A stretch of 64,000 bases of DNA. It comes from an uncultured Gammaproteobacteria bacterium (GTDB lineage: Bacteria > Patescibacteriota > Microgenomatia > Levybacterales > GWA1-39-11). The DNA is taken from NCBI GenBank assembly GCA_964452165.1, contig CAYVKP010000001.1, positions 204,110 through 268,109 of the forward strand. The letters are read 5' to 3'. Both the position numbers and the translations under genes were made by a program. The notes under the pieces are model-generated. The model was not told where the DNA came from and did no database searches. It saw only the letters and a list, made by a program, of their open reading frames with translations. Every line of letters begins with the position of its first letter. Positions within the stretch are counted from its first letter, which is position 1. Shown here piece after piece: positions 4,036 to 37,493 of the stretch.

Positions 4036-4042
4036 ATTTTTG

Positions 4043-8010: not shown

Positions 8011-8021
8011 TCGGACTGTAA

Positions 8022-8408: not shown

Positions 8409-8409
8409 A

Positions 8410-9045: not shown

Positions 9046-9097
9046 AAGTAAATCTTATTTGATTTTGTAAGTAATTGTCAACTCTCGTGGAGCCAGG

Positions 9098-19383: not shown

Positions 19384-19912
19384 GCACCCCTTTGTAGAAA
19401 AATTAATCGCTCTTGGAATCCTACTTTTTCTACTAGGTACCATCACGCACCTGCAAATTTTCACAAACGCCCTGATTAGCCAAAGGGAACAGCCTAAAAA
19501 GGTTTACGTGGCACAGGATCCGTCATCTATTTCAATTCCGTCGGTAAGAATTAACGTGAAGGTTGATGAAGGGGGTATAGCTTCGGGTAATTGGATTCTA
19601 TCTTCCGATAAAGCTCTATACTTACCCACAAGTGGAAAAATTGGGGAAGGCTACAATACCATAATCTACGCACACGACACCAATAATCTTTTTGGGCCTC
19701 TTCTTTGGGTAAAAAAGGGCGATTTAATTCTTCTTACTGACAGAAAAGGAAAGGAATTTAAGTATAAAATTTTCTCAACAGAAGAGGTTGACCCCAAAGA
19801 TCTGAGCAAGCTATATTCCACAGAGAAAAACATAGTCACGCTATTTACATGCGACGGGTGGTTTGATGAGAAAAGACTATTAGTAAAAGCAAAGCTACTT
19901 CAGAAAAGCTAA
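19340..19912 (+). CDS. Sortase-family transpeptidase
   Basis: N-terminal TM, conserved His (IIYAHDTNNLFGPL), TLxTC active-site Cys (VTLFTCDGW) and Arg (KRLLVKAKL). Overlaps the 3' end of its putative substrate gene. Confidence 0.75.
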   Translation: MPKSKLKKRAKQANKHPFVEKLIALGILLFLLGTITHLQIFTNALISQREQPKKVYVAQDPSSISIPSVRINVKVDEGGIASGNWILSSDKALYLPTSGKIGEGYNTIIYAHDTNNLFGPLLWVKKGDLILLTDRKGKEFKYKIFSTEEVDPKDLSKLYSTEKNIVTLFTCDGWFDEKRLLVKAKLLQKS

Positions 19913-19985
19913 CCCACAAAGATTCACCTATAGTATTGACATTGGGCTTTCAAATTGCTATAATCCCTAATCTTATATTAATTAG

Positions 19986-21662: not shown

Positions 21663-21775
21663 AAGTTTAAAACTCTCTACCGCTGTGGTGTCATTTTATT
21701 TAAAAAATGACTGATTGTAATCACCCAGTTAAAGTGATATTATCCCCCTAAGTACTTAGGTACGAATTCATTATT

Positions 21776-24700
21776 ATGCATAAGCTTAGGCGGGCTGCTC
21801 AAAAATTCCTAGTCTTTATAGCTTTTTTTGCCATGCTGGTTCAGTCTTTGAACCCGTTCTTGTACGTCTTACCTCAAGTAGCATATGCGCAAGAAGCAAC
21901 CGTTACACCAACCGATACTCCAAGTGATACACCAACGGTCACGCCAGACCAGAACCAGACAGTAACTCCGACCCCAACTCCAGCAGACTCAGTTACACCA
22001 ACTGACACCCCAACTCCAGCAGAAACCGTTACGCCAACTCCTGTTGGGGGAGATACTTCGACAGTTACACCAGACCAGACTCAACCCAACAACAATAGCC
22101 CGCCAAGTGGCCAGAGTGTTTCGGGTCAAAATAGTTCAAACAGCTCAAATAGCAACTCTCCAACTTCATCTATAACTCCCACGATAACGGTTGCTCCAAC
22201 TGTAACTCCAGCTCCTGATAAGGGGGAGGGCGGAAAAATAGGCGTAGCGGTTCTTAAAGATGTATCAGCCCCAAGCATTGATTTACAAGCAACAAATACG
22301 GATAGTTCCGCGACTTTGACAACAGACAAATCCGACTATGCACCAACAGATACAGCCTTAATTACCGGGTCTAATTTTTCTCCCAACAAGACTTATTCAT
22401 TAACTGTTAGTTCAAATGATGCTCCTGCAACCAGCACGACTGCTAACGTTACTACAAATGATAGCGGGTCATTCGTTTACGCCTATCAATTAGACGGAAA
22501 GTACAGACCAAACTATAAGGTCGAGGTTAAAGACGCTTCTGGAACAGTAGTTGCCTCAACAACATTTACAGATAGTGCAAGTGTAACAACCACAGTTAGT
22601 GGTGTTGCCTGTGTAGGTGACCAACCGGGGCAAAACGGTTTAGTATGTACTGCAAACGATATTAATCTTGCCTCTGTCTCACCCACCGTTACAATAAATG
22701 GGCATGGATGTAGATTCCCCGGAGATACAGTTAACTTTACGGCAAACTATCAAATTCAATCCAATGCAAACAATAGATACAACGCAGGAGTTTGGTTTGC
22801 AACAAATGGGCAGGCAAGTGCCTTGCATGGAACGTGTTCAGCAACTTCACTTCCAAGCACACCCAACCCTCCCTTTTTTGATGGTGGGACTTCATGTGGA
22901 GGTATTAATAAACCTGACATTGGAACAATTACTATCACTCAGACAGCAGTATGTAATCCCGACAGTAGTGGATTTCTCACGATTCCATACTGTACAACAT
23001 GGCAACAAAACTCAAATAACGCATGTACCACACCTACTGATACTGTACCCGGAACAGGCTCAAAATGTAATTGTCCAGCAGGTGGAATTGAAATCCCAAT
23101 AACTGTTCCTCCAGCAATAGAAGTTATAAAGTCTCTTTCACCATCAAATGACTCGGGACTATTTAATTTATTAGTTAATGCTATTACTAAAAAAACAGAC
23201 GCCACAAATGGTGGAACAACAGGAAAAGTTGGAGTAACAACCGGACAAAATACTTTTGGAGAAGCAAACGGAACAGGTACAAACTTAAGTAATTATGCTT
23301 CTGTTGCTTCATGTGTTTTAAGAGGAACTTCAACAACAGTAGCAATAACCGGAACTGGCCCAACTTGGACAATCACCAATGTAACTAACGGACAGGATAT
23401 AGTCTGTACGATTACCAATACTGCAAACAACGGAACAATCGAGCTTAAAAAAGTATGGTCCGGAACGGGAGGACAAACAACACTCACAATCGGATCAGCA
23501 ATCGGAGGCAATAACGTTGCCAACACACAGACAGGAGCAATCGGATCAGCACCTTTAACAACGGGTCCAAAAACGGTAAATAGCGGTAGTTATTATTTAA
23601 ATGAAACCGGAGGATTAACAAACTACACACCGTCTGCTCTTACTTGTTTCAATGATGCGAATAACGATGGAACAAATAATAACGGGGAGTCATCTGTTAG
23701 TGTCGGCGCAAGTAATGCGGTAGCAGTAAGCGCGAATCAACACGTCATTTGTTCTTTCACAAACACACGTGATCAGGGGACAATCGAGCTTAAAAAAGTA
23801 TGGTCCGGAACGGGAGGACAAACAACATTAAATATTGGAACATCAGCTGGAGGGACACAAACCGCAAGTGTTCAGACAGGAGCAAGCGGAGCAGCACCGC
23901 TCACAACCGGGACACAAACCGTTGATACCAATACTTACTATATTTCAGAAAATGGCGGATTAACGGATTACTCATCAGTTCTTGCTTGTACGGATAATGG
24001 AAGTACAGTAACACCGGGTGCAAATAACTCACTCAATGTTGCAAAGAATCATGCGGTTATTTGTACATTTACTAACACAAGAAATACCGGAACAATCAAA
24101 GTAATAAAAGACGTAGTGGCACCTAATGGGTCCCCAATTACCGATACTTCAACAAACTTTGCATTTTCGGTCGACGGCGGTTCTACGTTTGATTTAACTG
24201 ACGGAGGAAACCATTCAACAACTGTCATAACAGGAGCAAATCATACGGTTGTTGAAACGCCTAACGCAAATTACGACTTCGCAGGTTGTACAAGTGATTC
24301 CCAGACTCAGGGATCGGCCGTTGCTAACGGAATTGTTGTAACAGTTACAACTGGTACAACTTCAACTGTTACCTGTACTAACAAACAAAAGCATGCAAAG
24401 ATTACGGTCGTTAAAGTTGTCAAAGACGCAAGCGGAAAAGTAGTAAGTGATAGTAAAACATTTACAGTTCAATTAAATGGAGCAAGTGACGACTCTACGC
24501 TTTCCGATACTCATGATGTAGTCTACAATCCAAATCCTGGAACTTATACGGTAAGCGAAGCAAATGACGCAAATTACGATAATTTAGGATGTAAATTGAA
24601 TGCCGATCTTACTGCGACCAACTTTAGCTTGGCATCGAATCAATCTGTGACCGTTACATGTACCAATAAACAAAAACCTGGTTCAATTCTGGGAGTAAAA

Positions 24701-26581
24701 ACGGATGAAAACAACAATCTTCTACCAAATTGGACAATACAACTTGCTTCGTGTCTTGCAGGATTTACAAATTGTGTCGATGTTCTAGGAGCGGCAATCC
24801 CAACCGACAACAACGGAGCATATTTGTTCAGCAATTTAGTTACAGGATTTTACCAGGTGTACGAAATTATGCAGGCGGGTTGGACAAACGTTACCGCTCT
24901 TTTTCACAATGTTGAAATTCAGCCGGGAACAGTAAGTTCAAACAATAACTTCCAGAATAAAGGAAATCTGAGAATTACGGCTTGTAAATACGAGGATGCT
25001 GATGCTAATAATCAGACAACAGAAGATAGAACGCCGGTCAATAATTGGAGTTTTACACTCAGCGGTGAGCAACTCGGAGAAAATGTTACTCAGTCAGCAG
25101 GAGAAGAAAGCAATTGTACAACCTTTACGGATCTTAAACCCGGAGCCTATCAGGTTGATGAAAAATTGGCCAGTCACACGGACTGGTCTGTAGTAGACAA
25201 GAATGGAGATGTTCAGGACGTCACCCTTACAAATGAATCCACAACGGTTAATTTCTACAACTACCGAAAAGCTCATATTATTGTCAAGAAAGACGTAGTG
25301 AATCCTGATGGGGGCGTAGTTACTGATACAAGTACAAATTTTGACTTCAGAATTCACCAAGGCGGAGACATAGTTGAATCTTTCTCTTTGGTTGATGGCG
25401 CAACGAGTTCTACTTACGATGTTAATCCAGGCACTTACGATGTTAACGAAGTTCTAAACCATAGTAATTACTCGTTTGGTTCCTGTACTGCGGTTTATGA
25501 CGGTGAATCAATCGGCCGTCCTGTTACAGAAGAAGACGAATCAGGTGAGCAGGTAAGTCTTGATTCAAATGACACAGTGACGGTTACATGTATTAACAAG
25601 CAGAAAACGGGCAGGGTCCATGGATACAAATGGAACGATGAAAACGGGGACGGAAAACTAACTTGTACTGAAGGTGGCGAATTCCCAACATGTGAATCAA
25701 AACTATCTGATTGGACCATCTTTGTTGATTCAAATAACAATAAAACCCTCGATGAAGGAGAGCAATCGACTACAACCGACTCAAGTGGGAATTACTCTTT
25801 TACCCTTAATCCTGGGACCTACAATATTTGCGAAGTAGTAAAAACAGGTTGGGAGCAAACTTATCCGGGCTCAGGGGAAACTGCCTGTCACACCGTTACG
25901 ATAAGTTCAAATCAAAACTCTGAGCAAAGTCTTAACTTCGGAAATAAAAATGTGATTCCGGCATTCACAATTGCTAAAACCAATGACACAGAAGGAGCGA
26001 GCAAAGCACCGGGAGACGTAGTTAACTACACCCTGACATTAACGCTCGACGATACAAAGGGTCCCGGAGACAACATAACTGTTACCGACCTTCTTCCAAA
26101 GGGCTTTGTTTACAATGGAGGCTCATACCAAGCATTTCTCAATGGGAACCCAATATCAGTTGAAGAACCAACCTACCATTCACCGGGAACATGGACTCTT
26201 CCAAGCGCACAGCCGGGTGATGTATTTACATTAAAATACAAAGCAACTGTTGATAGCGGACAGCAATCAGGTACATATTATGACAATGCATGGGGACAAG
26301 GTACGCCTGTAGGAGATCCTTCAAGTACGATTCTTGCGCTCGCGGGTACAGATGGAAATATTGGTGATCCAAATTTTGTAGGAACACAAGTAAGCGTTTC
26401 AAAAGAAGATTCCCAATCGCCGTCTATTGCTAAAACCCAGGGCCAAGTTTTAGGTGCATCAACCGAGGCTCTGCCTTCAACAGGTGCAAACACATTTCAA
26501 ACAGCTCTGGGAATCATCGTACTTATTATAGGATTGAACTTATTACTTGTAGGCTTTATAATTCGCAAACGCTATGTTTAA
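21776..26581 (+). CDS. Giant (1601 aa) cell-surface adhesin-like protein with DUF11/Cna-B/SdrD-B-type repeats and C-terminal sortase signal
   Basis: Signal peptide. Pro/Thr-rich linker. Tandem repeats around GTIELKKVWSGTGGQTTL. SdrD-B-like segment KWNDENGDGKL...SDWTIFVDSNNNKTLDEGE. DUF11-like GDVVNYTLTLTL..GTYYDNAWG. C-terminus QVLGASTEALPSTGANTF, then a TM, then RKRYV. Confidence 0.8.
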   Translation: MHKLRRAAQKFLVFIAFFAMLVQSLNPFLYVLPQVAYAQEATVTPTDTPSDTPTVTPDQNQTVTPTPTPADSVTPTDTPTPAETVTPTPVGGDTSTVTPDQTQPNNNSPPSGQSVSGQNSSNSSNSNSPTSSITPTITVAPTVTPAPDKGEGGKIGVAVLKDVSAPSIDLQATNTDSSATLTTDKSDYAPTDTALITGSNFSPNKTYSLTVSSNDAPATSTTANVTTNDSGSFVYAYQLDGKYRPNYKVEVKDASGTVVASTTFTDSASVTTTVSGVACVGDQPGQNGLVCTANDINLASVSPTVTINGHGCRFPGDTVNFTANYQIQSNANNRYNAGVWFATNGQASALHGTCSATSLPSTPNPPFFDGGTSCGGINKPDIGTITITQTAVCNPDSSGFLTIPYCTTWQQNSNNACTTPTDTVPGTGSKCNCPAGGIEIPITVPPAIEVIKSLSPSNDSGLFNLLVNAITKKTDATNGGTTGKVGVTTGQNTFGEANGTGTNLSNYASVASCVLRGTSTTVAITGTGPTWTITNVTNGQDIVCTITNTANNGTIELKKVWSGTGGQTTLTIGSAIGGNNVANTQTGAIGSAPLTTGPKTVNSGSYYLNETGGLTNYTPSALTCFNDANNDGTNNNGESSVSVGASNAVAVSANQHVICSFTNTRDQGTIELKKVWSGTGGQTTLNIGTSAGGTQTASVQTGASGAAPLTTGTQTVDTNTYYISENGGLTDYSSVLACTDNGSTVTPGANNSLNVAKNHAVICTFTNTRNTGTIKVIKDVVAPNGSPITDTSTNFAFSVDGGSTFDLTDGGNHSTTVITGANHTVVETPNANYDFAGCTSDSQTQGSAVANGIVVTVTTGTTSTVTCTNKQKHAKITVVKVVKDASGKVVSDSKTFTVQLNGASDDSTLSDTHDVVYNPNPGTYTVSEANDANYDNLGCKLNADLTATNFSLASNQSVTVTCTNKQKPGSILGVKTDENNNLLPNWTIQLASCLAGFTNCVDVLGAAIPTDNNGAYLFSNLVTGFYQVYEIMQAGWTNVTALFHNVEIQPGTVSSNNNFQNKGNLRITACKYEDADANNQTTEDRTPVNNWSFTLSGEQLGENVTQSAGEESNCTTFTDLKPGAYQVDEKLASHTDWSVVDKNGDVQDVTLTNESTTVNFYNYRKAHIIVKKDVVNPDGGVVTDTSTNFDFRIHQGGDIVESFSLVDGATSSTYDVNPGTYDVNEVLNHSNYSFGSCTAVYDGESIGRPVTEEDESGEQVSLDSNDTVTVTCINKQKTGRVHGYKWNDENGDGKLTCTEGGEFPTCESKLSDWTIFVDSNNNKTLDEGEQSTTTDSSGNYSFTLNPGTYNICEVVKTGWEQTYPGSGETACHTVTISSNQNSEQSLNFGNKNVIPAFTIAKTNDTEGASKAPGDVVNYTLTLTLDDTKGPGDNITVTDLLPKGFVYNGGSYQAFLNGNPISVEEPTYHSPGTWTLPSAQPGDVFTLKYKATVDSGQQSGTYYDNAWGQGTPVGDPSSTILALAGTDGNIGDPNFVGTQVSVSKEDSQSPSIAKTQGQVLGASTEALPSTGANTFQTALGIIVLIIGLNLLLVGFIIRKRYV
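23431..24120 (+). repeat. Intragenic tandem domain repeats (about 345-bp period) within the adhesin gene
   Basis: Near-identical DNA acaatcgagcttaaaaaagtatggtccggaacgggaggacaaacaaca at about 23440 and about 23785. A third, diverged unit lies near 24080. Confidence 0.5.
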
Positions 26582-27596
26582 GATATTATTTAGATCATTT
26601 ATAGGTTTTGCCGCCGTGCTTATCTTAGCAAGCCTTGTCTCGCCTTTGGCGGATCAGGTTTTTGCTAACTCAGCAGTATCAATAAGACTTGAGCAGCCAA
26701 AGACTCCCACCAACCAAAATTCCCTTAATATTACATTTGTAACACTCGATACACAGAGTGAGGCAATTACCGTCAAATGCTTCAAAAAAGGCCCAACTGA
26801 TGGCGCTTTTAGCCAGTTTGGGGCAGACATAAATCTTGCGGCGGGCGGAAATACCGGAACCTGCGATGCCAATTCGTCCGTAATAAACACTCCGGGTTCA
26901 TATCAATTTTATGCAACAGCAACGGCAGCCTCAGGCAATGGCACAAGTTCAACAGTAAATGTTGATTACAACAATTCCGGGCCAGGTACTCCCACAAATT
27001 TCAGCAAGGACAGAATTACCTCTTGCTCGTACAAAATTAAATTTAGAACGGCAGATGATAGCGGAAAAACAATCAAAGTAAGAATATACCGTGCCGACGC
27101 AACTGCTTCGGATCCATCTTCAACGTCTGAAGTAGGAGCTGTTAATATTGGCTCGAGTACCGATGGAGAATTCACAAATACGATTCCTGACTGTAGTAAA
27201 TCATACTACTATGCGGTAAGGGCTTTTGATTCTGCAGGAAATGCGTCGGGGGTCGTAGGAGATTCTATAAATATAGGAAGTACTACTACGACCACAACCA
27301 CAACAACGGGCACAACGGGTGCAAGCCCAACCGCAGGCACTGGTGCAATTCCAGTTGGTGCAGGACAGGGATCGGTTCCGGGCGAGCAAACAAATCAAAA
27401 TGAAAATGGTACAAAACAAGAAGTACTTGGTGCATCAACACCAAGTGGCAAGACAGGAGAAATGGAAAAGAAGAACAATGCAACTGTGGGTAGCGCCTTT
27501 TCCTCAAAAAAACTTTTTGCAGGAGCAATCGCCATAATAGTAGTGATCGCAGGAGTTGCCTATATCCTCTACAGAAGAGGCAAGAAAACCATATAA
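26574..27596 (+). CDS. FN3/Ig-like surface protein with Thr-rich stalk and C-terminal sorting signal (EVLGAST...KTG, TM, RRGKK)
   Basis: Signal peptide, beta-rich domains, a run of Thr, and C-terminus EVLGASTPSGKTGEME...AGAIAIIVVIAGVAYILYRRGKKTI. Overlaps the adhesin gene's end by 8 nt. Confidence 0.6.
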   Translation: MFKILFRSFIGFAAVLILASLVSPLADQVFANSAVSIRLEQPKTPTNQNSLNITFVTLDTQSEAITVKCFKKGPTDGAFSQFGADINLAAGGNTGTCDANSSVINTPGSYQFYATATAASGNGTSSTVNVDYNNSGPGTPTNFSKDRITSCSYKIKFRTADDSGKTIKVRIYRADATASDPSSTSEVGAVNIGSSTDGEFTNTIPDCSKSYYYAVRAFDSAGNASGVVGDSINIGSTTTTTTTTTGTTGASPTAGTGAIPVGAGQGSVPGEQTNQNENGTKQEVLGASTPSGKTGEMEKKNNATVGSAFSSKKLFAGAIAIIVVIAGVAYILYRRGKKTI

Positions 27597-28217
27597 TTGT
27601 CTTTAGTGAAAAGACTTTCTTCTCTTTTAATTTACGCAGGCGGCGCACTTGTAATTCTATCTCTTATATTTCTAATCGTAGTTTTTGCCCCAATTATAAA
27701 ACTTGAACTTTCGTATTTTTTCCAAGGTCCTGGAAAAGAAAAAGTTGTTTTAGAAAATAAAACAAGAGCAGAAAATGTGCTTGTTCCTGTTGATCCCGAA
27801 TTCGGAATCGTGATTCCCAAAATTCGAGCAAATGCAAAAATAATACCAAATGTAAATCCGTATTCTGAGCCGGAGTACCAGAGAGCTTTAGCACGCGGTG
27901 TCGCTCAGGCACGCGGTACCGGTGTGCCGGGAGAGGGTAAAAACATTTTCCTTTTTTCTCACTCATCTGTCGACTTTCTTGAAGCTTCACGTTACAACTC
28001 TATTTTTTATTTGCTCAATAAGATGGAAAAAGGAGATGAGATAGACCTTTTTTATAAGGGGCGCGAATATAAGTATAAAGTAACTGACAAAAAAATAGTT
28101 GATCCTAAAAATGTTGCATACTTAAGTCCAAACTCTAACCAGGAAAAATTGACCTTGATGACTTGCTGGCCTCCCGGCACAAATCTACAAAGACTCATTA
28201 TAACAGCCCGGCAATAA
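27597..28217 (+). CDS. Sortase-family transpeptidase
   Basis: TM anchor, His (IFLFSHSS), Cys (KLTLMTCWPPGT) and Arg (RLIITAR). Lies immediately after two putative substrates. Confidence 0.75.
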   Translation: MSLVKRLSSLLIYAGGALVILSLIFLIVVFAPIIKLELSYFFQGPGKEKVVLENKTRAENVLVPVDPEFGIVIPKIRANAKIIPNVNPYSEPEYQRALARGVAQARGTGVPGEGKNIFLFSHSSVDFLEASRYNSIFYLLNKMEKGDEIDLFYKGREYKYKVTDKKIVDPKNVAYLSPNSNQEKLTLMTCWPPGTNLQRLIITARQ

Positions 28218-29819: not shown

Positions 29820-30101
29820 ATGAATAAAATTAAAAAAATAGCATTTGCAGGAGCAGCTTCTGCAATCATGCTTTCGAGTTTTGTAAGTGTAGCATTTGCG
29901 GTAACTCCAGGAGCTGCAGTAAAAAATCCAAATGCTAATTCAAACGCGTGTTGGGGTATGGATCGTTCTTTCTATGCGAGCCAAGGCTTTTTCCCTGAGA
30001 ATATGGACATTAAGCAGTCTTTTCCAGGTGATGTCGGTGAAGAACGTGCAGCTTGGGTTGCAACGTATTGTAGTTCACACGGGCCAGTCGTAGTAGAGTA
30101 G
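29820..30101 (+). CDS. Small secreted protein, hypothetical
   Basis: Strong RBS GGGGGGAGGTG. Signal peptide ends AFAVTP. Confidence 0.4.
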   Translation: MNKIKKIAFAGAASAIMLSSFVSVAFAVTPGAAVKNPNANSNACWGMDRSFYASQGFFPENMDIKQSFPGDVGEERAAWVATYCSSHGPVVVE

Positions 30102-30199
30102 AAAATAGAAGATTTGTTTTAAACAGCCCAAAGGGGTAATTCCCTGCGGGTTGTTTTGGTTGACAAATTTACAAAGGAGCTATATGATTCTATCTGTTA

Positions 30200-30961
30200 A
30201 TGAAAAAGTTTCTTGGAGTGATACTCGGATTTTTCCTCGTCCTCACAATTGTTTTTGCAGTCTCAGCGCAAAGTTCAAACGCAAATATTCCTGATCGCGA
30301 CGGTGATTTTCCGGATCCTGACCACCCCGGAATTCGCGTTCGCGTATTTGTGCACAATCCAAAAGATGCACGAGGATCATCAGACCTTACGCCCGCTACT
30401 TGTTCCCCAGATAATGACTCTGCAACCGTAGATGGTGTTACAGGGTGGAAACTTCCTTCAACAAATTGGAATTACAGAGTAAATAGCGCAAGTGCTCCAT
30501 CTGGAGTCGGAGGAAATGCCGTTACGATTACAAATAATGCTTTCGCAGCTTGGACAGGCGCTTTATCTCCCGCTTCAAGCAAGCCGACATTTTCATACGC
30601 AGGACCAACGTCTGTCAATAAAAACGTTTACGACGGACAGAACATAGTTGCTTGGGGACACACATCAGGTAGCGCTCTGGCCGTAACTTACACAAGATAC
30701 AATCAATCAACCGGGGTTGTTGTTGACGTTGACACAATTTTTAATAGCAAGTTTGCGTGGACATGGAATACATGCTCGGCAAGTGCTTATGATGCCCAGG
30801 ATATCTTGACGCACGAACTAGGACACTGGATGGGACTGGACGACAACTACGCGGCAAGTTTTGCGGATAACACAATGTATGGTTACGGGGCAAAAGCCGA
30901 GAACAAAAAGGACACTCCTGCAACAGGCGATAAAAACGCCCTCCTCACAATTTATCATTAA
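30200..30961 (+). CDS. Secreted metzincin-like zinc metallopeptidase with HEXXHXXGXXD motif (snapalysin/M7-like)
   Basis: Signal peptide. HELGHWMGLDD zinc-binding motif with Asp as the third ligand. Downstream Met-turn-like NTMYGY. Confidence 0.6.
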   Translation: MKKFLGVILGFFLVLTIVFAVSAQSSNANIPDRDGDFPDPDHPGIRVRVFVHNPKDARGSSDLTPATCSPDNDSATVDGVTGWKLPSTNWNYRVNSASAPSGVGGNAVTITNNAFAAWTGALSPASSKPTFSYAGPTSVNKNVYDGQNIVAWGHTSGSALAVTYTRYNQSTGVVVDVDTIFNSKFAWTWNTCSASAYDAQDILTHELGHWMGLDDNYAASFADNTMYGYGAKAENKKDTPATGDKNALLTIYH

Positions 30962-31168
30962 TTGTACTGGTAGAATTTTGCTTCATAACGAAAAAAAGCC
31001 CGAAAGAAATAGTTGTTGATGAATGCGTTATGAAAACGCGGAGAACAGCGCACGCTGCTCAAATTCACCAACCGTTCAATCAGTCGGGCTCTTTTTCTTG
31101 CCTTCACTTCGGGCGGCTACAACTTTTTAGGCTGCGCTTTGCTCGAAGTTATTCGATTGTTTGTGAGA

Positions 31169-31447
31169 TCAGTAGATGTTATCTCGACAGATCTCGTCTT
31201 TGCCGGCTAGGATTAGCGCGCCTACTTCCTCTTGGCGGTCTGATCCCTTGTGTTCAATCTCGGTCAACCTAACGTAGATGCTGGCCGAAGTCACTCGAGG
31301 GTCGTCTTCAATGACGGCTATTGCTAGTAGCGCGTTCTTGTCCATGCCGGTCGAAATGGTTACGATATCTCCTCGCCGGAGAATGTGGAGACAATCTCCA
31401 ACTCGTTCCAGTGAAGGAAAGGGTGCTGTCACCCAGGGAGATGCCAT
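31169..31447 (-). CDS. Island ORF 7 (92 aa), hypothetical
   Basis: Last ORF of the minus-strand series; GC-rich codon usage. Confidence 0.35.
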   Translation of the reverse strand: MASPWVTAPFPSLERVGDCLHILRRGDIVTISTGMDKNALLAIAVIEDDPRVTSASIYVRLTEIEHKGSDRQEEVGALILAGKDEICRDNIY

Positions 31448-31486
31448 AGCTTGCTCCTTCCGAAGCTTGTGGCGCGCTGGCCGTTA

Positions 31487-31831
31487 CTAGAGATACAGTT
31501 CAACCGCTCTCTGATGAGAGTGGTCGGGAACGAACGTACCTGCGACGCGGGGGGGTGCCGGCGCAAAATAGTCGATCTGGTACATGTTGGAACATGACAG
31601 GTAGGTGATGCCGCAAAGCACACCTGATTTGTCAGCTCTTCTAAGCCAGAGTGTTTGATCAGGCCAGACTTCGGCTGTGATGACGAAGTCAGCAAGTTCA
31701 CTACCACTATCAAGCATGGCACCATCGTTGGTGACAAAACCGAGGATCTCGTCTTCGGGGACCTGGAAGTGTTCACAGATCGCCTCAATGAGCTCAAGGG
31801 TCATGTCTACGTCGTTCGTTGTCCTGTACAT
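31487..31831 (-). CDS. Island ORF 6 (114 aa), hypothetical
   Basis: Consistent spacing within the operon; acidic protein. Confidence 0.35.
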   Translation of the reverse strand: MYRTTNDVDMTLELIEAICEHFQVPEDEILGFVTNDGAMLDSGSELADFVITAEVWPDQTLWLRRADKSGVLCGITYLSCSNMYQIDYFAPAPPRVAGTFVPDHSHQRAVELYL

Positions 31832-31958
31832 TGGCTTTCCTTCTCATGGGGATAATCATCCAGCTTAGCCACTGCTGAATGATGGCGGGGCTTGATTAGG
31901 CGACGGGGTACCCAATCAGGTCATTCGTAACTCCTTTCTGATGTTCGTCGTCACGAAC

Positions 31959-32156
31959 TTATCGGGAAACGTCCCAGTCTGGGTTGTTTCCACCAGCAAT
32001 ACGCCCATGTTTATGGGAAATCTTGCAGGCTGAGCAGAGCGTTATTGTCTCTCCGTAGATCTCTGAGCACTCCTTACACACGTTAGTTGTCTTGTTCCCG
32101 CAGAATGTGCAGAAGTACACACGCGGAATCAATCCGAAGAGTGGCATCAGGTTCAC
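31959..32156 (-). CDS. Island ORF 5, small zinc-ribbon protein (three CxxC pairs)
   Basis: CTFCGN..CKEC..CSAC. Confidence 0.4.
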   Translation of the reverse strand: MNLMPLFGLIPRVYFCTFCGNKTTNVCKECSEIYGETITLCSACKISHKHGRIAGGNNPDWDVSR

Positions 32157-32183
32157 TTCCTGTCTGGTGAAGGCGCGCCTTCG

Positions 32184-32729
32184 TTACTCAGTGGCTGTGT
32201 TGCCCTGGTAGACGTTGTAGTGCTCGGTGGCCTTGATAAACTTATCACCGGCAGACGGACCTTGCGGGCACCTGTGCACAATGATGAGCTGGCCGCTCTT
32301 GTGACAATCCCGTGCATCCCGGCGAGTCAAACTTGTACTCCAGGTGCAGTGGATTGCGTCACAGTCACACTCCTTCTCGACCTCCTGCGAGAGGAAATCG
32401 TTAATCAGCGCTGTGCTGATGAAGCCTCCACCGTCGTCCTCGATGAGTCGCCAGAATTCTCTGCAAGCATCATCGTGGTCGAAACAGTAACCGAAGTAGA
32501 AGAGTACTTCAACATTCGCGTCGGCTGGACTAGTTTCGTATTTGATTTCGGCCTCATCGAGCATTGCTCGAATTCCTTCAGCCGAAACTTGGTTCGCCGT
32601 AAGTCTGAGGCAGTTGTAAGTGCCCATGGGTATTTCCGAAGCATCGTGACAGAGGAAGCATTTCATTTCCCCGTCCCATATGTACTCCGGATACACCAGT
32701 AGTTCGCCCTCTGCGAATCTTCGTGCCAT
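32184..32729 (-). CDS. Island ORF 4, Cys/His-rich protein, hypothetical
   Basis: CFLCH, CFDHDDAC, ECDCDAIHC, DCH, HRC clusters suggest metal binding. Confidence 0.4.
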   Translation of the reverse strand: MARRFAEGELLVYPEYIWDGEMKCFLCHDASEIPMGTYNCLRLTANQVSAEGIRAMLDEAEIKYETSPADANVEVLFYFGYCFDHDDACREFWRLIEDDGGGFISTALINDFLSQEVEKECDCDAIHCTWSTSLTRRDARDCHKSGQLIIVHRCPQGPSAGDKFIKATEHYNVYQGNTATE

Positions 32730-32777
32730 CGTGGCTACTCCTCCCTATGAAGGCGCGCTGGCCCCCGTTACCTGCCG

Positions 32778-33320
32778 TTACTTGACGCTGAAGAACGCCC
32801 AGAGGATGTCTCCGAAGCGATGCGCGCATCTAACGTTAATGCACTCACCAGGTGACATCTTCGCGGCGATGTCTGCGTCCGTCGAGATCTGGTAGAAGAG
32901 CTTGTACTCGCCGGGTTTGACGGGTACCTTGAGTGGAATCGTAATGTTGCCCTTTCCACCTGGCTTAAGCGCCGGGACAGACACAGAGGCGTCCGAGATC
33001 TGCTTGAGATCTGGTTTACTTCCGTCAGTCGCGGCCGATTCGCCATAGACGCGGACGAGCTTGTAGTCGCCGGTCCAGGTTGTTGTGCCGCAATTGGTCA
33101 CTTCCCAGACTTTGTCTTGGGTTGATCCCGCTGCCAGCGTCTGCCACTTGTCGGGAGTGTCCTCGATGGTGACATCCCTGACGAACTTCATGCAGTCCTC
33201 GAGCTTGGCGGTCGCAGAGGATGTTGGTTTGTCTTTGGGACTGTACCATGCAGCCCACGCAACAACAACTCCCAAGATACATAGAAGCAGGAGAGTTACG
33301 ACAGTCTGCTGCCTGATCAT
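32778..33320 (-). CDS. Island ORF 3, membrane-anchored Ig/CARDB-like beta-sandwich protein
   Basis: N-terminal signal anchor VVTLLLLCILGVVVAWAAW. Segment VWEVTNCGTTTW...SVPALKPGGKGNITIPLKVPVKPGEYKLFYQI resembles CARDB/NBR1-like folds. Confidence 0.4.
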   Translation of the reverse strand: MIRQQTVVTLLLLCILGVVVAWAAWYSPKDKPTSSATAKLEDCMKFVRDVTIEDTPDKWQTLAAGSTQDKVWEVTNCGTTTWTGDYKLVRVYGESAATDGSKPDLKQISDASVSVPALKPGGKGNITIPLKVPVKPGEYKLFYQISTDADIAAKMSPGECINVRCAHRFGDILWAFFSVK

Positions 33321-33362
33321 CTTGTTGCTCCTTTCGAGCAGACTCGTGAGACCCGCGTCTCG

Positions 33363-33947
33363 TTACCCTCCGAATAGCACGGTGGCGGAGAAGAGGTCTC
33401 CACGCTGGAGAACTCTTCTGGATATTGCCTGTACATCTTCGCCGTTGAGGCGGCAGTTGCCCAGGCCGAACTCAAGTCCGAGTTCCTTAGTAAGATGCTT
33501 GACCAGTTCGTTGACGGTTTTGCCTGCGTAGGGCACCATCAAGGGGTCAAACGGTTGATCGCCGATGTCAAGTGTGACCACGATGTCGTTGGGGCCGGTA
33601 GACCGCAATATGGTCACTTCTTTTCTCAAATCGGCGACGGCTTGCTCGCGCTCTTCAGGCGAAAGGTTGTTCGCGGGTTTGCGCTCAACGCTCATATTGA
33701 AGTACGGCAGCACTTCACCGAGCTCCTCATTACCAGGGACGTCCTCGCCTCGCGAGGTGAAAGTCATGGTTCCAGCCAGACGCACAGAGTAGGCACCACC
33801 GCGGACAATCATGTCCTCGGTTACTTCTAGGGTGTCTCCGGCTTCTGGAATCTTGTCAACCCGCAGGACGGCGCTGTATATGTTGGCGCCTATTGCGATG
33901 TAGACAGGTTTCTTTTCAGGTTGATGACGTTTTCCGAACAGTTTCAC
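33363..33947 (-). CDS. Island ORF 2, protein with C-terminal ThiS/MoaD-like ubiquitin-fold domain ending in Gly-Gly (possible tandem beta-grasp)
   Basis: C-terminus ...CRLNGEDVQAISRRVLQRGDLFSATVLFGG followed directly by a stop. The pattern N-x-E-x-V...L..GD.....GG matches ThiS/MoaD. An N-terminal segment also ends ...GDTLEV..MIVRGG. Confidence 0.45.
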   Translation of the reverse strand: MKLFGKRHQPEKKPVYIAIGANIYSAVLRVDKIPEAGDTLEVTEDMIVRGGAYSVRLAGTMTFTSRGEDVPGNEELGEVLPYFNMSVERKPANNLSPEEREQAVADLRKEVTILRSTGPNDIVVTLDIGDQPFDPLMVPYAGKTVNELVKHLTKELGLEFGLGNCRLNGEDVQAISRRVLQRGDLFSATVLFGG

Positions 33948-33959
33948 TTCCGACCTCCG

Positions 33960-34289
33960 TTACTTGTTGAGAGTTGCGACCCACTTGATAGTGACGCCGC
34001 GGTTGGTGTCGGGGAATACGGTTACCCGGTTTTCCTCGATAAGAATTCGCCAACCGAATTTGTACTGCCATGCGCCGGCCAAGTCGTGGACCGTGAATGC
34101 AGTATTGTCCTTGCCTCCCATCACAACGTATGGGGGAAAGAGTCGTCTGTGTTCATCGCGAAGATTGCTCACGTCGTCGTGGAACGACTCAAACGTGAAC
34201 TCTCCAAGCCCGAACACTTGTTGGAAGCGGTTAGCATACCTCGGAGCGTTCTCCGGGGTGAGAACTATACCTTGTGCTTGGGTTGTCAT
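33960..34289 (-). CDS. Island ORF 1 (109 aa), hypothetical
   Basis: First gene of the operon, preceded by a strong SD. No recognisable motif. Confidence 0.35.
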   Translation of the reverse strand: MTTQAQGIVLTPENAPRYANRFQQVFGLGEFTFESFHDDVSNLRDEHRRLFPPYVVMGGKDNTAFTVHDLAGAWQYKFGWRILIEENRVTVFPDTNRGVTIKWVATLNK

Positions 34290-34339
34290 GTCTCCTCCTC
34301 CATCTTTCTTTCCAGCTTATGCTGATGAATTTAGTTTCG

Positions 34340-34440
34340 TATCACATAAGTGACACACCGGATACAACAATTGACAGTTAACAATTAACAAAATTGACAA
34401 CAGACAAAAATTATATGCAGAGCGTCACCTACGTGACAAA
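34340..34440 (-). promoter_or_regulatory. Candidate island promoter (TTGTCA-18-TATAAT on minus strand) with two GTCAC-N4-GTGAC-type palindromes
   Basis: Minus strand reads cTTTGTCAcgtaggtgacgctctgcaTATAAT. The perfect palindrome GTCACGTAGGTGAC sits in the spacer. A second near-palindrome GTGTCACTTATGTGATAC lies downstream. Confidence 0.3.
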
Positions 34441-34623
34441 GTTTTTACAAACAATCGAATTGTCAAAGTGCAAGAAAAATTAAAAATTGCAACCAAGACA
34501 AAAAACAGGCATGCAAATCGCCCGAAATTGTTCCTGAATGTAAGGCGATTATAACACAGATGAGGCTATTCGACTATATTATAGGCTTAGCAATTTAGTA
34601 TTCGGATATACGTGTCGTTTGGG

Positions 34624-34652
34624 TTGACGCAAGCCTCAACTTCTGTTAAAAT
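34624..34652 (+). promoter_or_regulatory. Candidate sigma70-type nusA promoter (TTGACG-17-TAAAAT)
   Basis: gggTTGACGcaagcctcaacttctgtTAAAAT read directly. Confidence 0.4.
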
Positions 34653-34677
34653 GATTTCGGTTTAGGTAGAGAAATTC

Positions 34678-34704
34678 GGGTGGTATACAAACCACCTTTT
34701 TTTA
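34678..34704 (+). terminator. Intrinsic-terminator-like hairpin (GGGTGGT-ATACAA-ACCACC plus T7) in the nusA leader: candidate attenuator
   Basis: Perfect 7-bp GC-rich stem followed by TTTTTTT, about 35 nt upstream of the nusA ATG and downstream of the candidate promoter. Confidence 0.45.
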
Positions 34705-34741
34705 TACGTGATACTTAATACCAGATACAAAATACAAATTT

Positions 34742-36001
34742 ATGGCAGCAGTAGTTCAAAGATCAGAATTTGCGTTAGCATTAAATCAAATAGCCTCCGA
34801 GCGAGGAGTTGACCCCCAAGTGGTACTTGATACCATGAAAGGCGCAATAGTTGCCGCCTACCGTAAAGATAATCCAATAACTGATGAAGAGGCAGAAGCC
34901 TACAGCGCCGAACTTAATGAAAACACGGGTGAAACAAAAATCTTAAAAGATGGAAAAGACGTTACTCCTCCGGGATTTGGAAGAATCGCAGCACAAACCG
35001 CCAAACAAGTTCTCTTGCAGAAAATCCGCGAGAAAGAAAAAGATGCAGTAATCGCAGAGTACACAAAAAGAATCGGCACCGTTGTAAACGGCATGATTCT
35101 AAGATTTATCGGTCCAAATATCATTGTCGATATAGGAAAAGCGGAGGCTGTAATTGAACCAGCGGACAAAATTCAAAATGAGCAATACTTCCTCAATAAA
35201 AAAATGCCAGTTTATATTCGTGGTATTGATGAAGAGAAGCGAGACATAATGGTTTCTCGCTCGAGTAATGGTTTGATCGAAGGCCTACTCAAGCGTGAAG
35301 TTCCGGAGGTAAATTCAGGATCCGTAACAATCAAAAAAGTAGTCCGAGAGCCGGGAAACCGCGCAAAAATCGCAGTTTATTCAGAACAATCCGGAATTGA
35401 TCCGGTCGGCTCTTGCGTAGGACAAAAGGGAGTCAGAATTCAAGCCGTAATTGATGCGATTGATGGTCTTGAGAAGATCGACGTGATTCAGTGGAGTCCG
35501 GATCCGGTTAAATTCATCACAAACGCGCTTTCTCCCGCAAAAAACCTTGTTGTTGAGATAGATGAGAAAAACAAAATGGCAAAAGTCCGCGCACCTCGTG
35601 AGGAATTACCTTTGATAATCGGGCGAGAAGGACAAAACGTTCGTTTGGCCTCAAAATTGACAGAATATAATATTGAAGTTGAAGGCGATGAGTCAATGTC
35701 TATGCCGGAAGAAGCAAAAAAACCTGAAGTTGCAACCGCTCCAAAAGAAGAAGTAAAAGCTGAAGAAAAACCAACTGAAGAGACAGGGACAAATGAGAAA
35801 AAAGAAGAGGTCGCAGCAGCAGAAAATCCCGCACCCGCAGCCTCAGCTCCAGCAGATCGGCCCTCGGAATCAACCGAGAAAAAAGATGCAGAAGCCGAGA
35901 AGACTGACGAGACGGTTCCAACAGAAACTTCCCAAACAGATACCAATCAGCCTGGGGCTGCGCAAGACGCAACACCGGCCGAAGAAATAAAATCTGAGTA
36001 A
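34742..36001 (+). CDS. nusA: Transcription termination/antitermination factor NusA (with acidic C-terminal tail)
   Basis: NusA N-terminal domain, S1 and two KH motifs (IGREGQNVRLASKLT). E/K/T-rich tail. Confidence 0.95.
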   Translation: MAAVVQRSEFALALNQIASERGVDPQVVLDTMKGAIVAAYRKDNPITDEEAEAYSAELNENTGETKILKDGKDVTPPGFGRIAAQTAKQVLLQKIREKEKDAVIAEYTKRIGTVVNGMILRFIGPNIIVDIGKAEAVIEPADKIQNEQYFLNKKMPVYIRGIDEEKRDIMVSRSSNGLIEGLLKREVPEVNSGSVTIKKVVREPGNRAKIAVYSEQSGIDPVGSCVGQKGVRIQAVIDAIDGLEKIDVIQWSPDPVKFITNALSPAKNLVVEIDEKNKMAKVRAPREELPLIIGREGQNVRLASKLTEYNIEVEGDESMSMPEEAKKPEVATAPKEEVKAEEKPTEETGTNEKKEEVAAAENPAPAASAPADRPSESTEKKDAEAEKTDETVPTETSQTDTNQPGAAQDATPAEEIKSE

Positions 36002-36029
36002 TTATGGGAAGTCTGAATTTTTATAAAAA

Positions 36030-37493
36030 ATGGATAAAGACTCGCAAAAACAAAATTTTCCGCCGGTTGTTTCGGTCTTAGGTCACGTTGACCACGGAAA
36101 AACCTCACTCCTCGATAAAATTCGTGAAACCTCAGTTGCTACCCGGGAGAAGGGCGGAATTACACAAAAAATAGGTGCCTCAGAAATTGAAATTGACCAC
36201 GAGGGACAAAAACGAAAAATTACTTTTATTGATACACCCGGGCATGAGGCGTTTGCCAATATGCGCTCTCAGGGAGTAAATGCTGCAGATATAGTTCTTC
36301 TAATAGTTGCTGCAGATGATGGTGTAATGCCGCAAACTCGAGAATCAATTCAAAAAATAATCGACGCCAAAATTCCTTATATCGTAGTATTTACAAAAAT
36401 AGATATTGATGGGGTAAGTATTGAACGCGCAAAGCAGAGCGTTGCCAAAGAGGGAATTTTACTCGAAGGTCTTGGAGGAGAAGTTCCATATGTGGGGGTT
36501 TCGAGCAAAACAGGGGAGAAGGTCAAGGATCTACTTGATTTAATAGTTTTAGTTTATGATCTCTCTGGCGTAAAAAAGGACTCAAGCGCACCCTTCATGG
36601 GAGTTGTAATTGACGCCAAGCGCGATTCACGCCGTGGAATTGTTGCAACGCTTGTAATAAAGTCTGGGAAGATTGAAGTTGGGAATAAATTATATACACA
36701 TGGAAAAGAGGCCGGTAAAGTAAGGGCGATGCTTGATACAACGGGCAAGAATGTAAAAATGGCCACAATTGGTGCTGCAGTAGAGCTTCTGGGGTTAGCT
36801 GAAGTTTTGCCCGCGGGTAGTGTTCTTTTCGACCGAGAAACAGAACCGGTAGTGGTACCGGATAACAAGCCGGTACCTACCGAACCTCAAGATTTGATGG
36901 CGTTTTTGAGTGCTGTTCAGCCTGACTTTATTCCTATAATTCTAAAGACTCAGTCAAGTGCTGAGCTTGAAGCTATTAAAAATTCGTTACCTGAATCGGT
37001 AAAGATTATTTTTGAGGGTCTCGGGGAAGTTGGAGTTGCAGATATACTTATGGCAAAAGACTTTCATGCGTTGGTTCTGGCGTTCAACGTAGACGCTACA
37101 AAAGAGGCAAAGACGCTGGCCGAATCAGAAAAAGTATTTTTTAAGTCCTACGAAATCATATATCAAATGCTTGATGAGATTGAGCTGCTTCTTGGAGCCG
37201 TGGCTGAGCCTGCGGAAAAGGTGATCGGGCAAGGCAAGATACAGGCATCATTTCTAGGTACGACAGGCACAATAATCGGCTTGAAGGTCACCGAGGGTAG
37301 ACTGGCCGTAGGCGATAAAATCAAAATCATGCGTAGTGAGCGTGAGATGGGCACGGCTGAAATCACCTCAATCAGGCACGGTAAGGAAGACGTGAAGCTC
37401 GTTTCGAAGAATACGGAATGTGGAATAATGATTAAGCCTGACGTTGACTTTGCCCCTCAAGATGATATAATAGCCTATAGCAAAAAACAATAG
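36030..37493 (+). CDS. infB: Translation initiation factor IF-2 (short form, lacks N-terminal extension)
   Basis: G-domain VLGHVDHGKTSLLD, DTPGHEAF, beta-barrel and C-terminal domains. Only 487 aa. Confidence 0.9.
   Translation: MDKDSQKQNFPPVVSVLGHVDHGKTSLLDKIRETSVATREKGGITQKIGASEIEIDHEGQKRKITFIDTPGHEAFANMRSQGVNAADIVLLIVAADDGVMPQTRESIQKIIDAKIPYIVVFTKIDIDGVSIERAKQSVAKEGILLEGLGGEVPYVGVSSKTGEKVKDLLDLIVLVYDLSGVKKDSSAPFMGVVIDAKRDSRRGIVATLVIKSGKIEVGNKLYTHGKEAGKVRAMLDTTGKNVKMATIGAAVELLGLAEVLPAGSVLFDRETEPVVVPDNKPVPTEPQDLMAFLSAVQPDFIPIILKTQSSAELEAIKNSLPESVKIIFEGLGEVGVADILMAKDFHALVLAFNVDATKEAKTLAESEKVFFKSYEIIYQMLDEIELLLGAVAEPAEKVIGQGKIQASFLGTTGTIIGLKVTEGRLAVGDKIKIMRSEREMGTAEITSIRHGKEDVKLVSKNTECGIMIKPDVDFAPQDDIIAYSKKQ

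Follow-up and report, generated by a model that had tools for sequence, protein, structure and literature searches.

A GC-rich seven-gene ORFan island with a bracketing inverted repeat in a putative variable slot upstream of nusA in Candidatus Levybacteria

Analysis of a 64,000-nucleotide (nt) stretch of DNA from an uncultured bacterium (GenBank assembly GCA_964452165.1, contig CAYVKP010000001.1, positions 204,110 to 268,109; this whole stretch is referred to below as the window) revealed a GC-rich island of seven small genes at positions 31030-34330, between an M10-like metalloprotease gene and nusA. Judged from the relatives of its nusA, the host belongs to Candidatus Levybacteria of the candidate phyla radiation (CPR), and the island was compared with a set of 80 Levybacteria nusA loci and with 1.29 Mb of Levybacteria sequence around nusA. 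The composition of the island is foreign to the genome that carries it, its junctions are real, and GC-rich gene sets of different content recur at the same site in other genomes. Moreover, the gene block stands in a partly conserved frame with a bracketing inverted repeat that is conserved in position and divergent in sequence, and the flanking elements show an asymmetry between strands of the type expected for RNA. We favour, with moderate confidence, the explanation that the island is an exchangeable accessory cassette derived from a GC-richer gene pool and held in a variable slot that is specific to the clade and separates a region of cell-surface genes from the conserved nusA-infB operon.

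A jump in GC content and in GC content at third codon positions (GC3) had been noticed by eye in a first-pass annotation of the window, and windowed GC, GC3 and tetranucleotide statistics now separate the island clearly from its flanks. The GC content is 0.533 within the island and 0.406 in the remainder of the window; windows of 3.3 kb outside the island have a mean GC of 0.404 with a standard deviation of 0.020 and a maximum of 0.453, and the island lies more than six standard deviations above them. When 400-nt windows are followed along the DNA, GC passes from 0.43-0.46 to 0.50-0.57 across ~31.0-34.3 kb and then to 0.36-0.41, and 2-kb windows never exceed 0.46 elsewhere. The seven open reading frames (ORFs), named I1-I7 in the order of transcription on the minus strand (109, 194, 180, 181, 65, 114 and 92 codons), have GC3 values of 0.54-0.68 vs 0.29-0.39 in four flanking genes. 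Measured against the rest of the window, the strand-symmetric tetranucleotide distance has its maximum, 0.476, in the 3.3-kb window starting at 31001 and amounts to 0.15-0.32 elsewhere. The second-largest tetranucleotide deviation in the window was recorded at 21-24 kb.

Sequence data independent of the assembly were obtained from Logan contigs, located via exact-protein look-ups in three sequencing runs. Contig L001 (SRR9179562) corresponds to window positions 30332-36620 at 100% identity and spans both junctions, L002 (SRR9179560) corresponds to 31451-37258 and L087 (SRR9179563) to 29917-31917, while L003 (SRR9179563) is a 99.8%-identical variant of 32093-33444; all these contigs of the species carry the same cassette. 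A chimeric assembly join, which the first-pass annotation had offered as an alternative, or a contaminating fragment joined into a Levybacteria contig would agree with the sharp shift in composition at each edge and with the fact that SRR9179563 assembles the region in pieces, with breaks at ~31917, ~32093, ~33444 and ~34591. However, L001, L002 and L087 cover the region as described, L001 including both junctions, and the same arrangement is present in two other species from a different project. Since Logan contigs of three runs cross the junctions, a chimera is very unlikely, its probability being practically negligible, and the island is real. The variant L003 differs from the window by three clustered substitutions at 33122-33129 within I3, which alter one amino acid and could be due to strain microdiversity or to a local assembly error.

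The seven island proteins gave no tblastn match in the 80 Levybacteria nusA loci, and the earlier view of a horizontally acquired ORFan operon of foreign composition is supported, as the composition deviates and the genes are missing from these loci. A single recent insertion would be too simple a picture, since L004 and L008, the closest species in the set, hold different GC-rich cassettes at the same site, framed by partly conserved flanks and bracketed by a repeat that covaries. Their nusA genes are 85% (L004) and 81% (L008) identical to that of the window and 93% identical to each other. In both loci the GC-rich block lies directly upstream of nusA in divergent orientation, at ~2172-5041 with nine small minus-strand ORFs in L004 and at 6907-9484 with seven small minus-strand ORFs in L008; the blocks are ~2.5-3 kb long with a GC content of 0.51-0.55 vs 0.38. 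A scan of the 1.29 Mb for GC-rich segments (an excess of at least 0.09 over 1.5 kb) yielded three only, in L004, L008 and L023, all of them no more than ~3.7 kb upstream of nusA. The clusters of the window, L004 and L008 are placed directly upstream of nusA, and that of L023 1.2 kb further.

Compared as a compositional class, the islands have GC3 values of 0.57-0.62 and resemble each other more than their hosts: relative synonymous codon usage correlates with r of 0.45-0.62 among islands vs -0.36 to 0.02 with hosts, and GC-normalised tetranucleotide frequencies with r of 0.45-0.65 among islands and 0.07-0.35 with hosts, the hosts correlating with one another at 0.60-0.88. The gene content, on the other hand, differs. 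The proteins of the window show no similarity to those of L004 and L008 by BLASTP or hhalign (below 3%), and the cassettes of L004 and L008 have four genes in common at 33-52% identity, the others being unrelated. The genes of these two cassettes are also ORFans, and further members of their cassette family were not found. Loci L005, L007, L009 and L010 are without such genes. Across the fetched genomes the gene order downstream of nusA is conserved, while upstream it is broken in every one. In the more distant relative L007 a metalloprotease homologue directly adjoins nusA with a spacer of 195 bp, and the nusA promoter and leader hairpin of this locus align with window positions ~34610-34741; an insertion of the island into a terminator hairpin, which we had considered, was unsupported by this empty-site relative.

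Two other loci with GC-richer DNA beside nusA were recorded. The L023 patch (7421-8770, GC 0.53-0.58 vs 0.38, ~1.2-2.6 kb upstream of nusA) is smaller than the L004 and L008 blocks and encodes two small paralogues of 99 and 133 amino acids (aa), both starting with MTSIK, and a 113-aa protein, each gene being preceded by a near-identical GCCTGAGGAGGCAA spacer; a bracketing repeat was not found in this patch. L006, a contig of 2.6 kb, ends (positions 1-91) inside a minus-strand ORF beginning MERGLLFLRQQGLSPVDLRK, with a GC of 0.48 vs 0.43 for the whole contig. This ORF starts ~12 nt from the nusA -35 box and may represent another island at the same site, cut by assembly.

From the first cassette gene to nusA, the AT-rich sequence could be aligned in all three genomes (window, L004, L008), and it includes four shared frame elements, namely the nusA promoter with its leader hairpin, a minus-strand extended -10 element with a hairpin, a conserved block, and a repeat arm directly inside this block, whose partner is found directly after the stop codon of the last gene (Table 1). 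On the metalloprotease side, only short motifs are shared with L004 and L008. The conserved block reads TTTTTCTTGCACTTTGA(C/T)A at window positions 34461-34479 and contains an exact 16-mer common to the window and L004; matches of viral contigs to this 16-mer were dismissed as chance matches. In L008 the block is split by a ~51-nt palindromic insertion, ATCCCGACGAATTTCATTCGTGCGGGATCCCGAATGA..., at 9646-9700, which recurs with 75-95% identity at L083 3693-3752 and L054 19214-19313 and may be a small repeat resembling miniature inverted-repeat transposable elements.

The bracketing repeat, P2, is perfect over 14 nt in the window. In L004 and L008 the repeat has the sequence TTTGCGGATTT / AAATCCGCAAA, is perfect over 11 of 11 positions and occupies equivalent positions (arms at 5163-5153 and 2163-2153 in L004, and at 9629-9619 and 6908-6898 in L008). 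With the conserved block as anchor of the alignment, the window and L004 differ at 5 of the 11 positions that overlap, and complementarity is perfect in each genome. Shuffled sequences placed a repeat at that site in 0 of 200,000 trials for the window and in 10 of 200,000 for L004. Taken alone, the 14-nt repeat is unremarkable, as the window holds six inverted pairs of at least 14 nt at distances of 0.5-6 kb, and nine overlapping 14-mer inverted matches vs ~2 expected from shuffles; it gains its weight because an independent repeat sits at the same positions in L004 and L008. Between these two relatives, the arms and noncoding flanks are 82-93% identical and the enclosed proteins 33-52%. The first-pass annotation had pointed to another inverted repeat at the island edges, GAAAGAAA/TTTCTTTC. 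This repeat exists (30996-31009 / 34305-34318, 12 of 14 positions matching), but one of its copies is the descending strand of the 3' terminator stem, and the better, perfect P2 repeat had been missed. An outer repeat, TTTTTCTTGC/GCAAGAAAAA, examined as a second long-range helix (P1), was downgraded, since the U-tract of the terminator is a local pairing partner of its 3' strand.

Table 1. Coordinates of the island genes, of the frame elements and of the upstream surface-protein genes (positions in the window)
Feature	Position	Strand	Description
3' domain	30990-31104	-	structured, with an A-tract/stem/U-tract terminator at its end; in common with the convergent metalloprotease gene
Local hairpin P3	31105-31150	-	between inner and outer repeat arms, 3' side
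P2 3' arm	31151-31164	-	ACAAACAATCGAAT (sense strand), 4 nt after the stop of the last gene; perfect 14/14 with 34447-34460
I7	31169-31447	-	92-aa ORFan, GGAAGGAG upstream; GC3 0.54
I6	31487-31831	-	114-aa ORFan, acidic N-terminus
I5	31959-32156	-	62-65-aa zinc-ribbon-like ORF; GC3 0.61
I4	32184-32729	-	181-aa Cys/His-rich ORFan: 10 Cys, 6 His, including CFLCH
I3	32778-33320	-	180 aa, N-terminal hydrophobic segment and NBR1/FW-type Ig domain
I2	33363-33947	-	194-aa ORFan, C-terminus FGG
I1	33960-34289	-	109-aa ORFan, first gene, behind GGAGGAGGAG
Leader hairpin, ~100 nt	34340-34438	-	both strands carry TGTCAC-N4-GTGAC-like palindromes; z -4.9
Sigma-70-like promoter	34439-34410	-	TTGTCA-18-TATAAT, from promoter scan; inside the 5' strand of the leader hairpin
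P2 5' arm	34447-34460	-	ATTCGATTGTTTGT (sense strand); abuts the block conserved with L004 and L008
Conserved block	34461-34482	-	TTTTTCTTGCACTTTGACA (sense strand); common to the window and L004, interrupted in L008 by a 51-nt insertion; 5' strand of possible outer helix P1
Terminator-like hairpin and U-run	34499-34524	-	after the extended -10; L004 and L008 have GUGGC...GCCAC, then U6, at the equivalent place
Extended -10 promoter	34548-34556	-	TGnTATAAT; TATAAT with upstream TG in all three genomes
Sortase genes	19340-19912 and 27597-28217		
Family-2 glycosyltransferase	19986-21662		
1601-aa surface protein	21776-26581		SpaA/SdrD-like domains

Two of the flanking elements, the leader hairpin and the 3' domain, look like sense-strand RNA structures and not DNA palindromes, because the sense strand is predicted to fold far better than the antisense strand and does so with G·U pairs. 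For the leader hairpin, the folding energies of the sense and antisense strands are -42.7 and -15.4 kcal/mol in the window (8 G·U pairs in sense), -47.0 and -26.6 kcal/mol in L004 (6 G·U) and -35.0 and -27.0 kcal/mol in L008 (3 G·U). The corresponding values for the 3' domain are -49.3 and -36.1 kcal/mol in the window (30985-31105, 3 G·U), -61.8 and -44.9 kcal/mol in L004 (8 G·U) and -60.1 and -39.0 kcal/mol in L008 (8 G·U). Fold z-scores of both elements range from -4.5 to -5.5, and the sense fold of 30980-31172 reaches -64.4 kcal/mol (z -4.5). The 3' domain has a GC content of 0.44 vs 0.35 in the neighbouring intergenic DNA, and analogous domains in L004 and L008 are 88-93% identical to each other. 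At the position of the leader hairpin, both L004 and L008 form a hairpin whose sequence differs from that of the window; its stem is conserved between the two and its loop varies by a 23-nt indel. The position of P3 is likewise taken in these loci by a different hairpin, CAGUCUAAUAAGACUG. In the folded stems of these relatives four pairs vary and none is broken, three of the changes being one-sided via G·U and one compensatory. The TGTCAC-N4-GTGAC palindromes were also considered as repressor operators, which was rejected, as they are the two strands of the long hairpin that folds only in the sense RNA.

If the leader hairpin is indeed a sense RNA structure, transcription would have to start upstream of 34438, near or beyond the 5' arm of the repeat. 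The extended -10 element and the terminator-like hairpin within 34499-34556 are candidates for the transcription start and attenuator of the cassette leader, or for a separate small RNA. When the two ends were folded together, the window and L004 gave a three-way junction, in which the inner helix meets a local hairpin on the 3' side and an outer helix. AAGGCAAGAAAAA (31092-31104), in the 3' domain, would supply the 3' strand of this possible outer helix. L008 retained the inner helix and the local hairpins and did not form the same outer helix. No Rfam family matched either flank at permissive thresholds.

From these elements a course of events may be proposed for the favoured reading. The cassette would be transcribed as a single polycistronic mRNA from the minus-strand extended -10 element (~34548), and the transcript would pass through a leader with the terminator-like hairpin and the ~100-nt hairpin and end at the structured 3' terminator domain (~30990). 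The arms of the bracketing repeat may pair in the mRNA and clamp or mark its ends for processing, by analogy with the processing stems that flank rRNA; alternatively or additionally, the repeat may mark the boundaries for the exchange of whole cassettes, which would be replaced through recombination and not diverge slowly. As to the role of the cassette, we can only guess, from its neighbourhood and turnover, at a function on the cell surface or in some conflict involving a host or phage. In a bolder and decidedly tentative form of the proposal, a subclade of Levybacteria would possess a dedicated slot beside nusA, in which a conserved, structured RNA frame of promoter, leader resembling an attenuator, long hairpin and terminator domain holds and expresses interchangeable GC-rich ORFan cassettes from a mobile gene pool, each with its own matching end pair that pairs across 3 kb. 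This end pairing would be part of an undescribed mechanism of mRNA processing or stabilisation or of cassette exchange, integron-like in function and unrelated in mechanism.

Several observations weigh against the favoured reading. The framed architecture occurs in three genomes only, two of which are closely related, and for this reason the covariation amounts to essentially two independent observations. The 5' frame of the window resembles that of L004 and L008 in patches only, and the left neighbour of the cassette is the metalloprotease in the window vs a large surface protein in L004 and L008. No donor, recombinase or mobile-element gene was found, nor was an empty or alternative slot seen among the contigs of this species. 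Because all pairs of the inner repeat are Watson-Crick pairs, the repeat alone cannot separate RNA pairing from a role at the DNA level. Doubt attaches to the outer helix P1: the nearer U-tract of the terminator is an equally good partner for its 3' strand, and its 5' strand is interrupted by the 51-nt insertion in L008. Finally, the best sigma-70 match (34439-34410) is enclosed by the bracketing repeat and falls within the leader hairpin, and a transcript starting from it would be without the 5' arm and the full hairpin; the upstream promoter, for its part, is followed by a terminator-like hairpin.

The gene block itself was examined at the level of its products. As annotated originally, seven genes tile the minus strand behind Shine-Dalgarno sites, with a purine-rich site of the GGAGG/AGGAG/GGAAG type upstream of each ORF and spacers from I1 to I7 of 12, 42, 48, 27, 127 and 39 nt. 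Real coding sequence is indicated by the pattern GC1 > GC2 < GC3, by tiling without breaks and by the significant Pfam domain of one ORF. Among the products, one is probably an Ig-like (NBR1/FW) protein anchored in the membrane, and the other six would be small and cytoplasmic, two of them probable metal binders. The Ig-like protein, I3, matches the profile PF16158 (N_BRCA1_IG) over residues 59-149 with an E value of 1.9e-14 and 54.5 bits vs a cut-off of 28. Its earlier description as a membrane-anchored Ig/CARDB-like protein is hence confirmed for the Ig domain, CARDB reaching an E value of 0.067 only, and its hydrophobic N-terminal segment, seen by eye, is a probable membrane anchor. In a sequence search of the PDB, NBR1 (structure 4OLE) was the sole and weak match. 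The zinc ribbon and the Cys/His-rich protein of the first-pass annotation were recovered as I5 and I4, and by inspection both are plausible metal binders. I5 has the motif CxxC-x7-CxxC-x10-CxxC-x3-HxH with three CxxC and a weak match to DZR below the cut-off (E 0.0015); its start is more likely the ATG at 32147, and it is the least certain gene of the seven, since it is missing from the gene calls of the Logan records. I6 has a weak partial match to HTH_26, likewise below the cut-off (E 0.017). Other than the Ig domain of I3, nothing was recognised in the seven proteins by Pfam, NCBIfam, PHROGs or PADLOC.

In an exhaustive phmmer search, the seven proteins were joined as one query of 935 aa and compared with 1.84 billion protein representatives. 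Among the best 150 of 320 matches, 6 were self matches and the remaining 144 (of 314 non-self matches) all fell on I3; within the same best 150, I1, I2, I4, I6 and I7 had a self match only, and I5, which is not called as a gene in the source records, had no match whatever. This negative result for the six proteins other than I3 is valid for E < ~1.5e-5. The term ORFan thus applies within these limits to all products but I3, which alone has homologues. Furthermore, k-mer-seeded searches of 5.8 billion clusters with I2 and I3 returned the query or a 99%-identical variant only. The I3 matches include a subfamily of single-domain proteins of 140-182 aa with a hydrophobic N-terminus and the motifs NCG(T/S)TTW and, C-terminally, RFGDxLW, and the best named relative among the matches listed is an NBR1-Ig-like protein of Anaerolineales (phylum Chloroflexota). 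The closest homologues lie on short contigs with unrelated neighbour genes, the gene neighbourhoods not being conserved, and a metagenome scan with the I3 family yielded four short, uninformative loci. I3 resembles NBR1 FW and NBR1-Ig-like proteins (PF16158) in the significant profile match, the conserved W and the NCG(T/S)TTW motif; unlike bacterial relatives of this type, which often comprise several domain copies in large secreted proteins, it belongs to a small single-domain subfamily (140-182 aa) with an N-terminal hydrophobic anchor.

Several small features of the spacers may be mentioned here. The unusually long 127-nt spacer between I5 and I6 holds a two-codon mini-ORF, ATG ACC TGA (31916-31924, minus strand), behind a strong GAAAGGAG site and directly after a GTTCGT-GACG-ACGAAC hairpin. 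The motif TAACG..(CCAG)CGCGCC recurs in three minus-strand spacers (32730-32777, 32157-32183 and 31448-31486), one of which contains a 12-nt palindrome, AAGGCGCGCCTT, at 32170-32181. In 5 of the 7 genes the stop codon TAA is followed by CG, in one case as TAG-TAA-CG.

Besides an exchangeable cassette, other origins of the island were weighed. It is conceivable, if doubtful, that the 14-nt repeats act at the DNA level, either as terminal inverted repeats of a non-autonomous mobile cassette or as crossover sites of an invertase, the enzyme being encoded elsewhere. The perfect inverted repeat exactly at the ends of the gene block agrees with this, as does the difference of the repeat between cassette types, since transposon ends differ by family, and the fact that the island is without a recombinase of its own fits a non-autonomous element. 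However, a target-site duplication is seen at neither end (the flanks are TTGACA and AACTTC), the unit is present in a single copy in the window (one two-mismatch arm match in 64 kb fits chance), and GC-rich sequence continues for ~50 nt outside the 3' arm. The cassette also has the same orientation in all three genomes and all Logan contigs, the neighbouring structures with G·U pairs work only in sense RNA, and all seven genes are co-oriented, unlike known invertible gene segments; an invertase was not found among the tested neighbour genes. Less likely than not by a wide measure is the remnant of a prophage, satellite or integrative plasmid, in which cargo ('moron') genes would persist after the loss of mobility genes, with repeated integration at a hot spot upstream of nusA. 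The foreign composition common to the islands of four genomes, the small ORFans in one orientation, the recurrence of GC-rich DNA at the same site and the L006 contig, which ends in a GC-richer ORF abutting the nusA promoter, would suit such an origin. Phage or plasmid cargo, as suggested at the outset, is nevertheless unsupported: the best PHROGs match of the island proteins has an E value of 0.057 (none below 0.05), blastn gave no match in 50,697 phage records or in 72,556 plasmid records (PLSDB), and no relative of the island was found in IMG/VR. As had been stated before, integrase, tRNA and long terminal repeats do not flank the island: Pfam and NCBIfam detected no integrase or recombinase in the seven island proteins or the nine upstream neighbours (the downstream neighbour is nusA), no tRNA or tmRNA gene and no Rfam family above the gathering threshold was found in the entire window, and convincing flanking direct repeats, including those of the att type, were not seen around the island. 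Moreover, a conserved AT-rich frame and a covarying bracket are not features of prophage decay.

We regard it as improbable that the genes are native, vertically inherited and fast-evolving under diversifying selection, with a GC content raised locally, for example by GC-biased gene conversion at a recombination hot spot. In its favour, four cassette genes of L004 still have recognisable homologues in the L008 cassette (33-52% identity, vs 93% for nusA), the frame is conserved at roughly the rate of the core genome, and the GC excess lasts across species rather than decaying. These points are opposed by the lack of any trace of homology between the proteins of the window and those of L004 and L008, even by profile comparison, by the differences in gene number and order, by a GC3 shift of ~+0.3 within 3 kb, which is extreme for gene conversion, and by the nearby relatives L005, L007, L009 and L010, in which such genes are missing. 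A small ubiquitin-like conjugation system or another anti-phage defence system, with the Gly-Gly protein as modifier and the Cys/His proteins as enzymes, appears very improbable. I2 does end in FGG, as the first-pass annotation had pointed out when calling it a ubiquitin-fold protein, its last 75 residues resemble the ThiS/MoaD pattern by eye, and two neighbouring proteins are Cys/His-rich. The fold is not supported by profiles or BLASTP, and the assignment goes back to the Gly-Gly end: Pfam, NCBIfam and PADLOC gave no ThiS, MoaD, ubiquitin, E1, E2 or JAB match for any of the seven proteins, BLASTP of I2 against E. coli ThiS and human ubiquitin returned nothing, and the AlphaFold2 single-sequence model of I2 was unusable (predicted local distance difference test, pLDDT, 37). 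A C-terminal GG is expected by chance in ~0.5% of proteins, GG-terminated proteins do not occur in the L004 and L008 cassettes, and the largest island protein, with 194 aa, is too small for an E1. In PADLOC none of the seven proteins matched a model at E up to 1, which leaves a small defence or modification system without support from this source.

Patescibacteria frequently carry genomic islands (PMC12455944), and the classical horizontally acquired islands and islets have been reviewed (PMC2704930). The island described here is like these in its compositional deviation, its accessory ORFans and its absence from relatives, and unlike them in having no integrase, tRNA target or flanking direct repeats and in the recurrence of different cargo at one site. 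What goes beyond known genomic islands is this recurrence at one site together with the covarying bracket in an RNA-like frame. A closer parallel in some respects is offered by replacement-type flexible islands, in which related strains hold different gene sets at the same site, e.g. O-antigen and capsule loci and the flexible islands of marine bacteria; such islands usually extend over tens of kb, exceed the genome in AT content and contain genes that can be recognised as those of glycosyltransferases or transporters. The fixed position between flanks that are here partly conserved, non-homologous content, atypical composition, vicinity of cell-surface genes and lack of own mobility genes are found here as well. 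In contrast, the cassette is 3 kb long, GC-rich and made of small ORFans, it has a covarying inverted repeat in structured, RNA-like flanks, and the variation was seen between species and not between strains.

In the rRNA operons of bacteria, long-range processing stems flank 16S and 23S rRNA and are cut by RNase III. The bracket is similar in that complementary sequences kilobases apart enclose a transcript unit, with position conserved and sequence covarying, and in the GC-enriched structured flanks within an AT-rich genome. It differs in that the enclosed RNA is a protein-coding polycistron and the helix is short, with 11-14 bp (perhaps 24-27 bp with P1); transcription through both arms and cleavage are proposals here. 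Mobile insertion cassettes are elements without a transposase that are bounded by terminal inverted repeats. The inverted repeats that immediately bound a set of passenger genes, likewise with no transposase, recall these elements; unlike them, the island has no target-site duplication, is present as a single copy in the 64-kb window, and shares its insertion point with cassettes of other species, whose repeats have another sequence.

The genomes of CPR bacteria are tiny, the bacteria rely on other cells, and the gain and turnover of their accessory genes and the roles of their many ORFans are almost uncharted. If the favoured reading is true, there is a reproducible site beside a universal marker gene at which foreign-looking gene sets are swapped, and their compositional signature could lead to the donor pool, be it CPR phages, plasmids or host organisms. 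Covarying end-pairing over several kb around a protein-coding operon would, moreover, be unusual outside rRNA operons. Such islands are also places where binning and assembly tend to break, and the L006 contig ends exactly there; because of this tendency, islands are probably under-represented in CPR genome bins.

The neighbourhood on both sides of the island deserves a short description. The metalloprotease gene upstream of the island is convergent with the cassette. A surface-protein locus at 19340-28217, further upstream, comprises two sortase genes, a gene for a family-2 glycosyltransferase and that of a 1601-aa surface protein. On the opposite side, nusA is preceded by a promoter, TTGACG-17-TAAAAT, and a leader hairpin, GGGTGG...CCACC, with a U-run (34624-34697), an arrangement kept in L004, L005, L006, L007 and L008. 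This leader hairpin looks like an attenuator, which is possibly autoregulatory.

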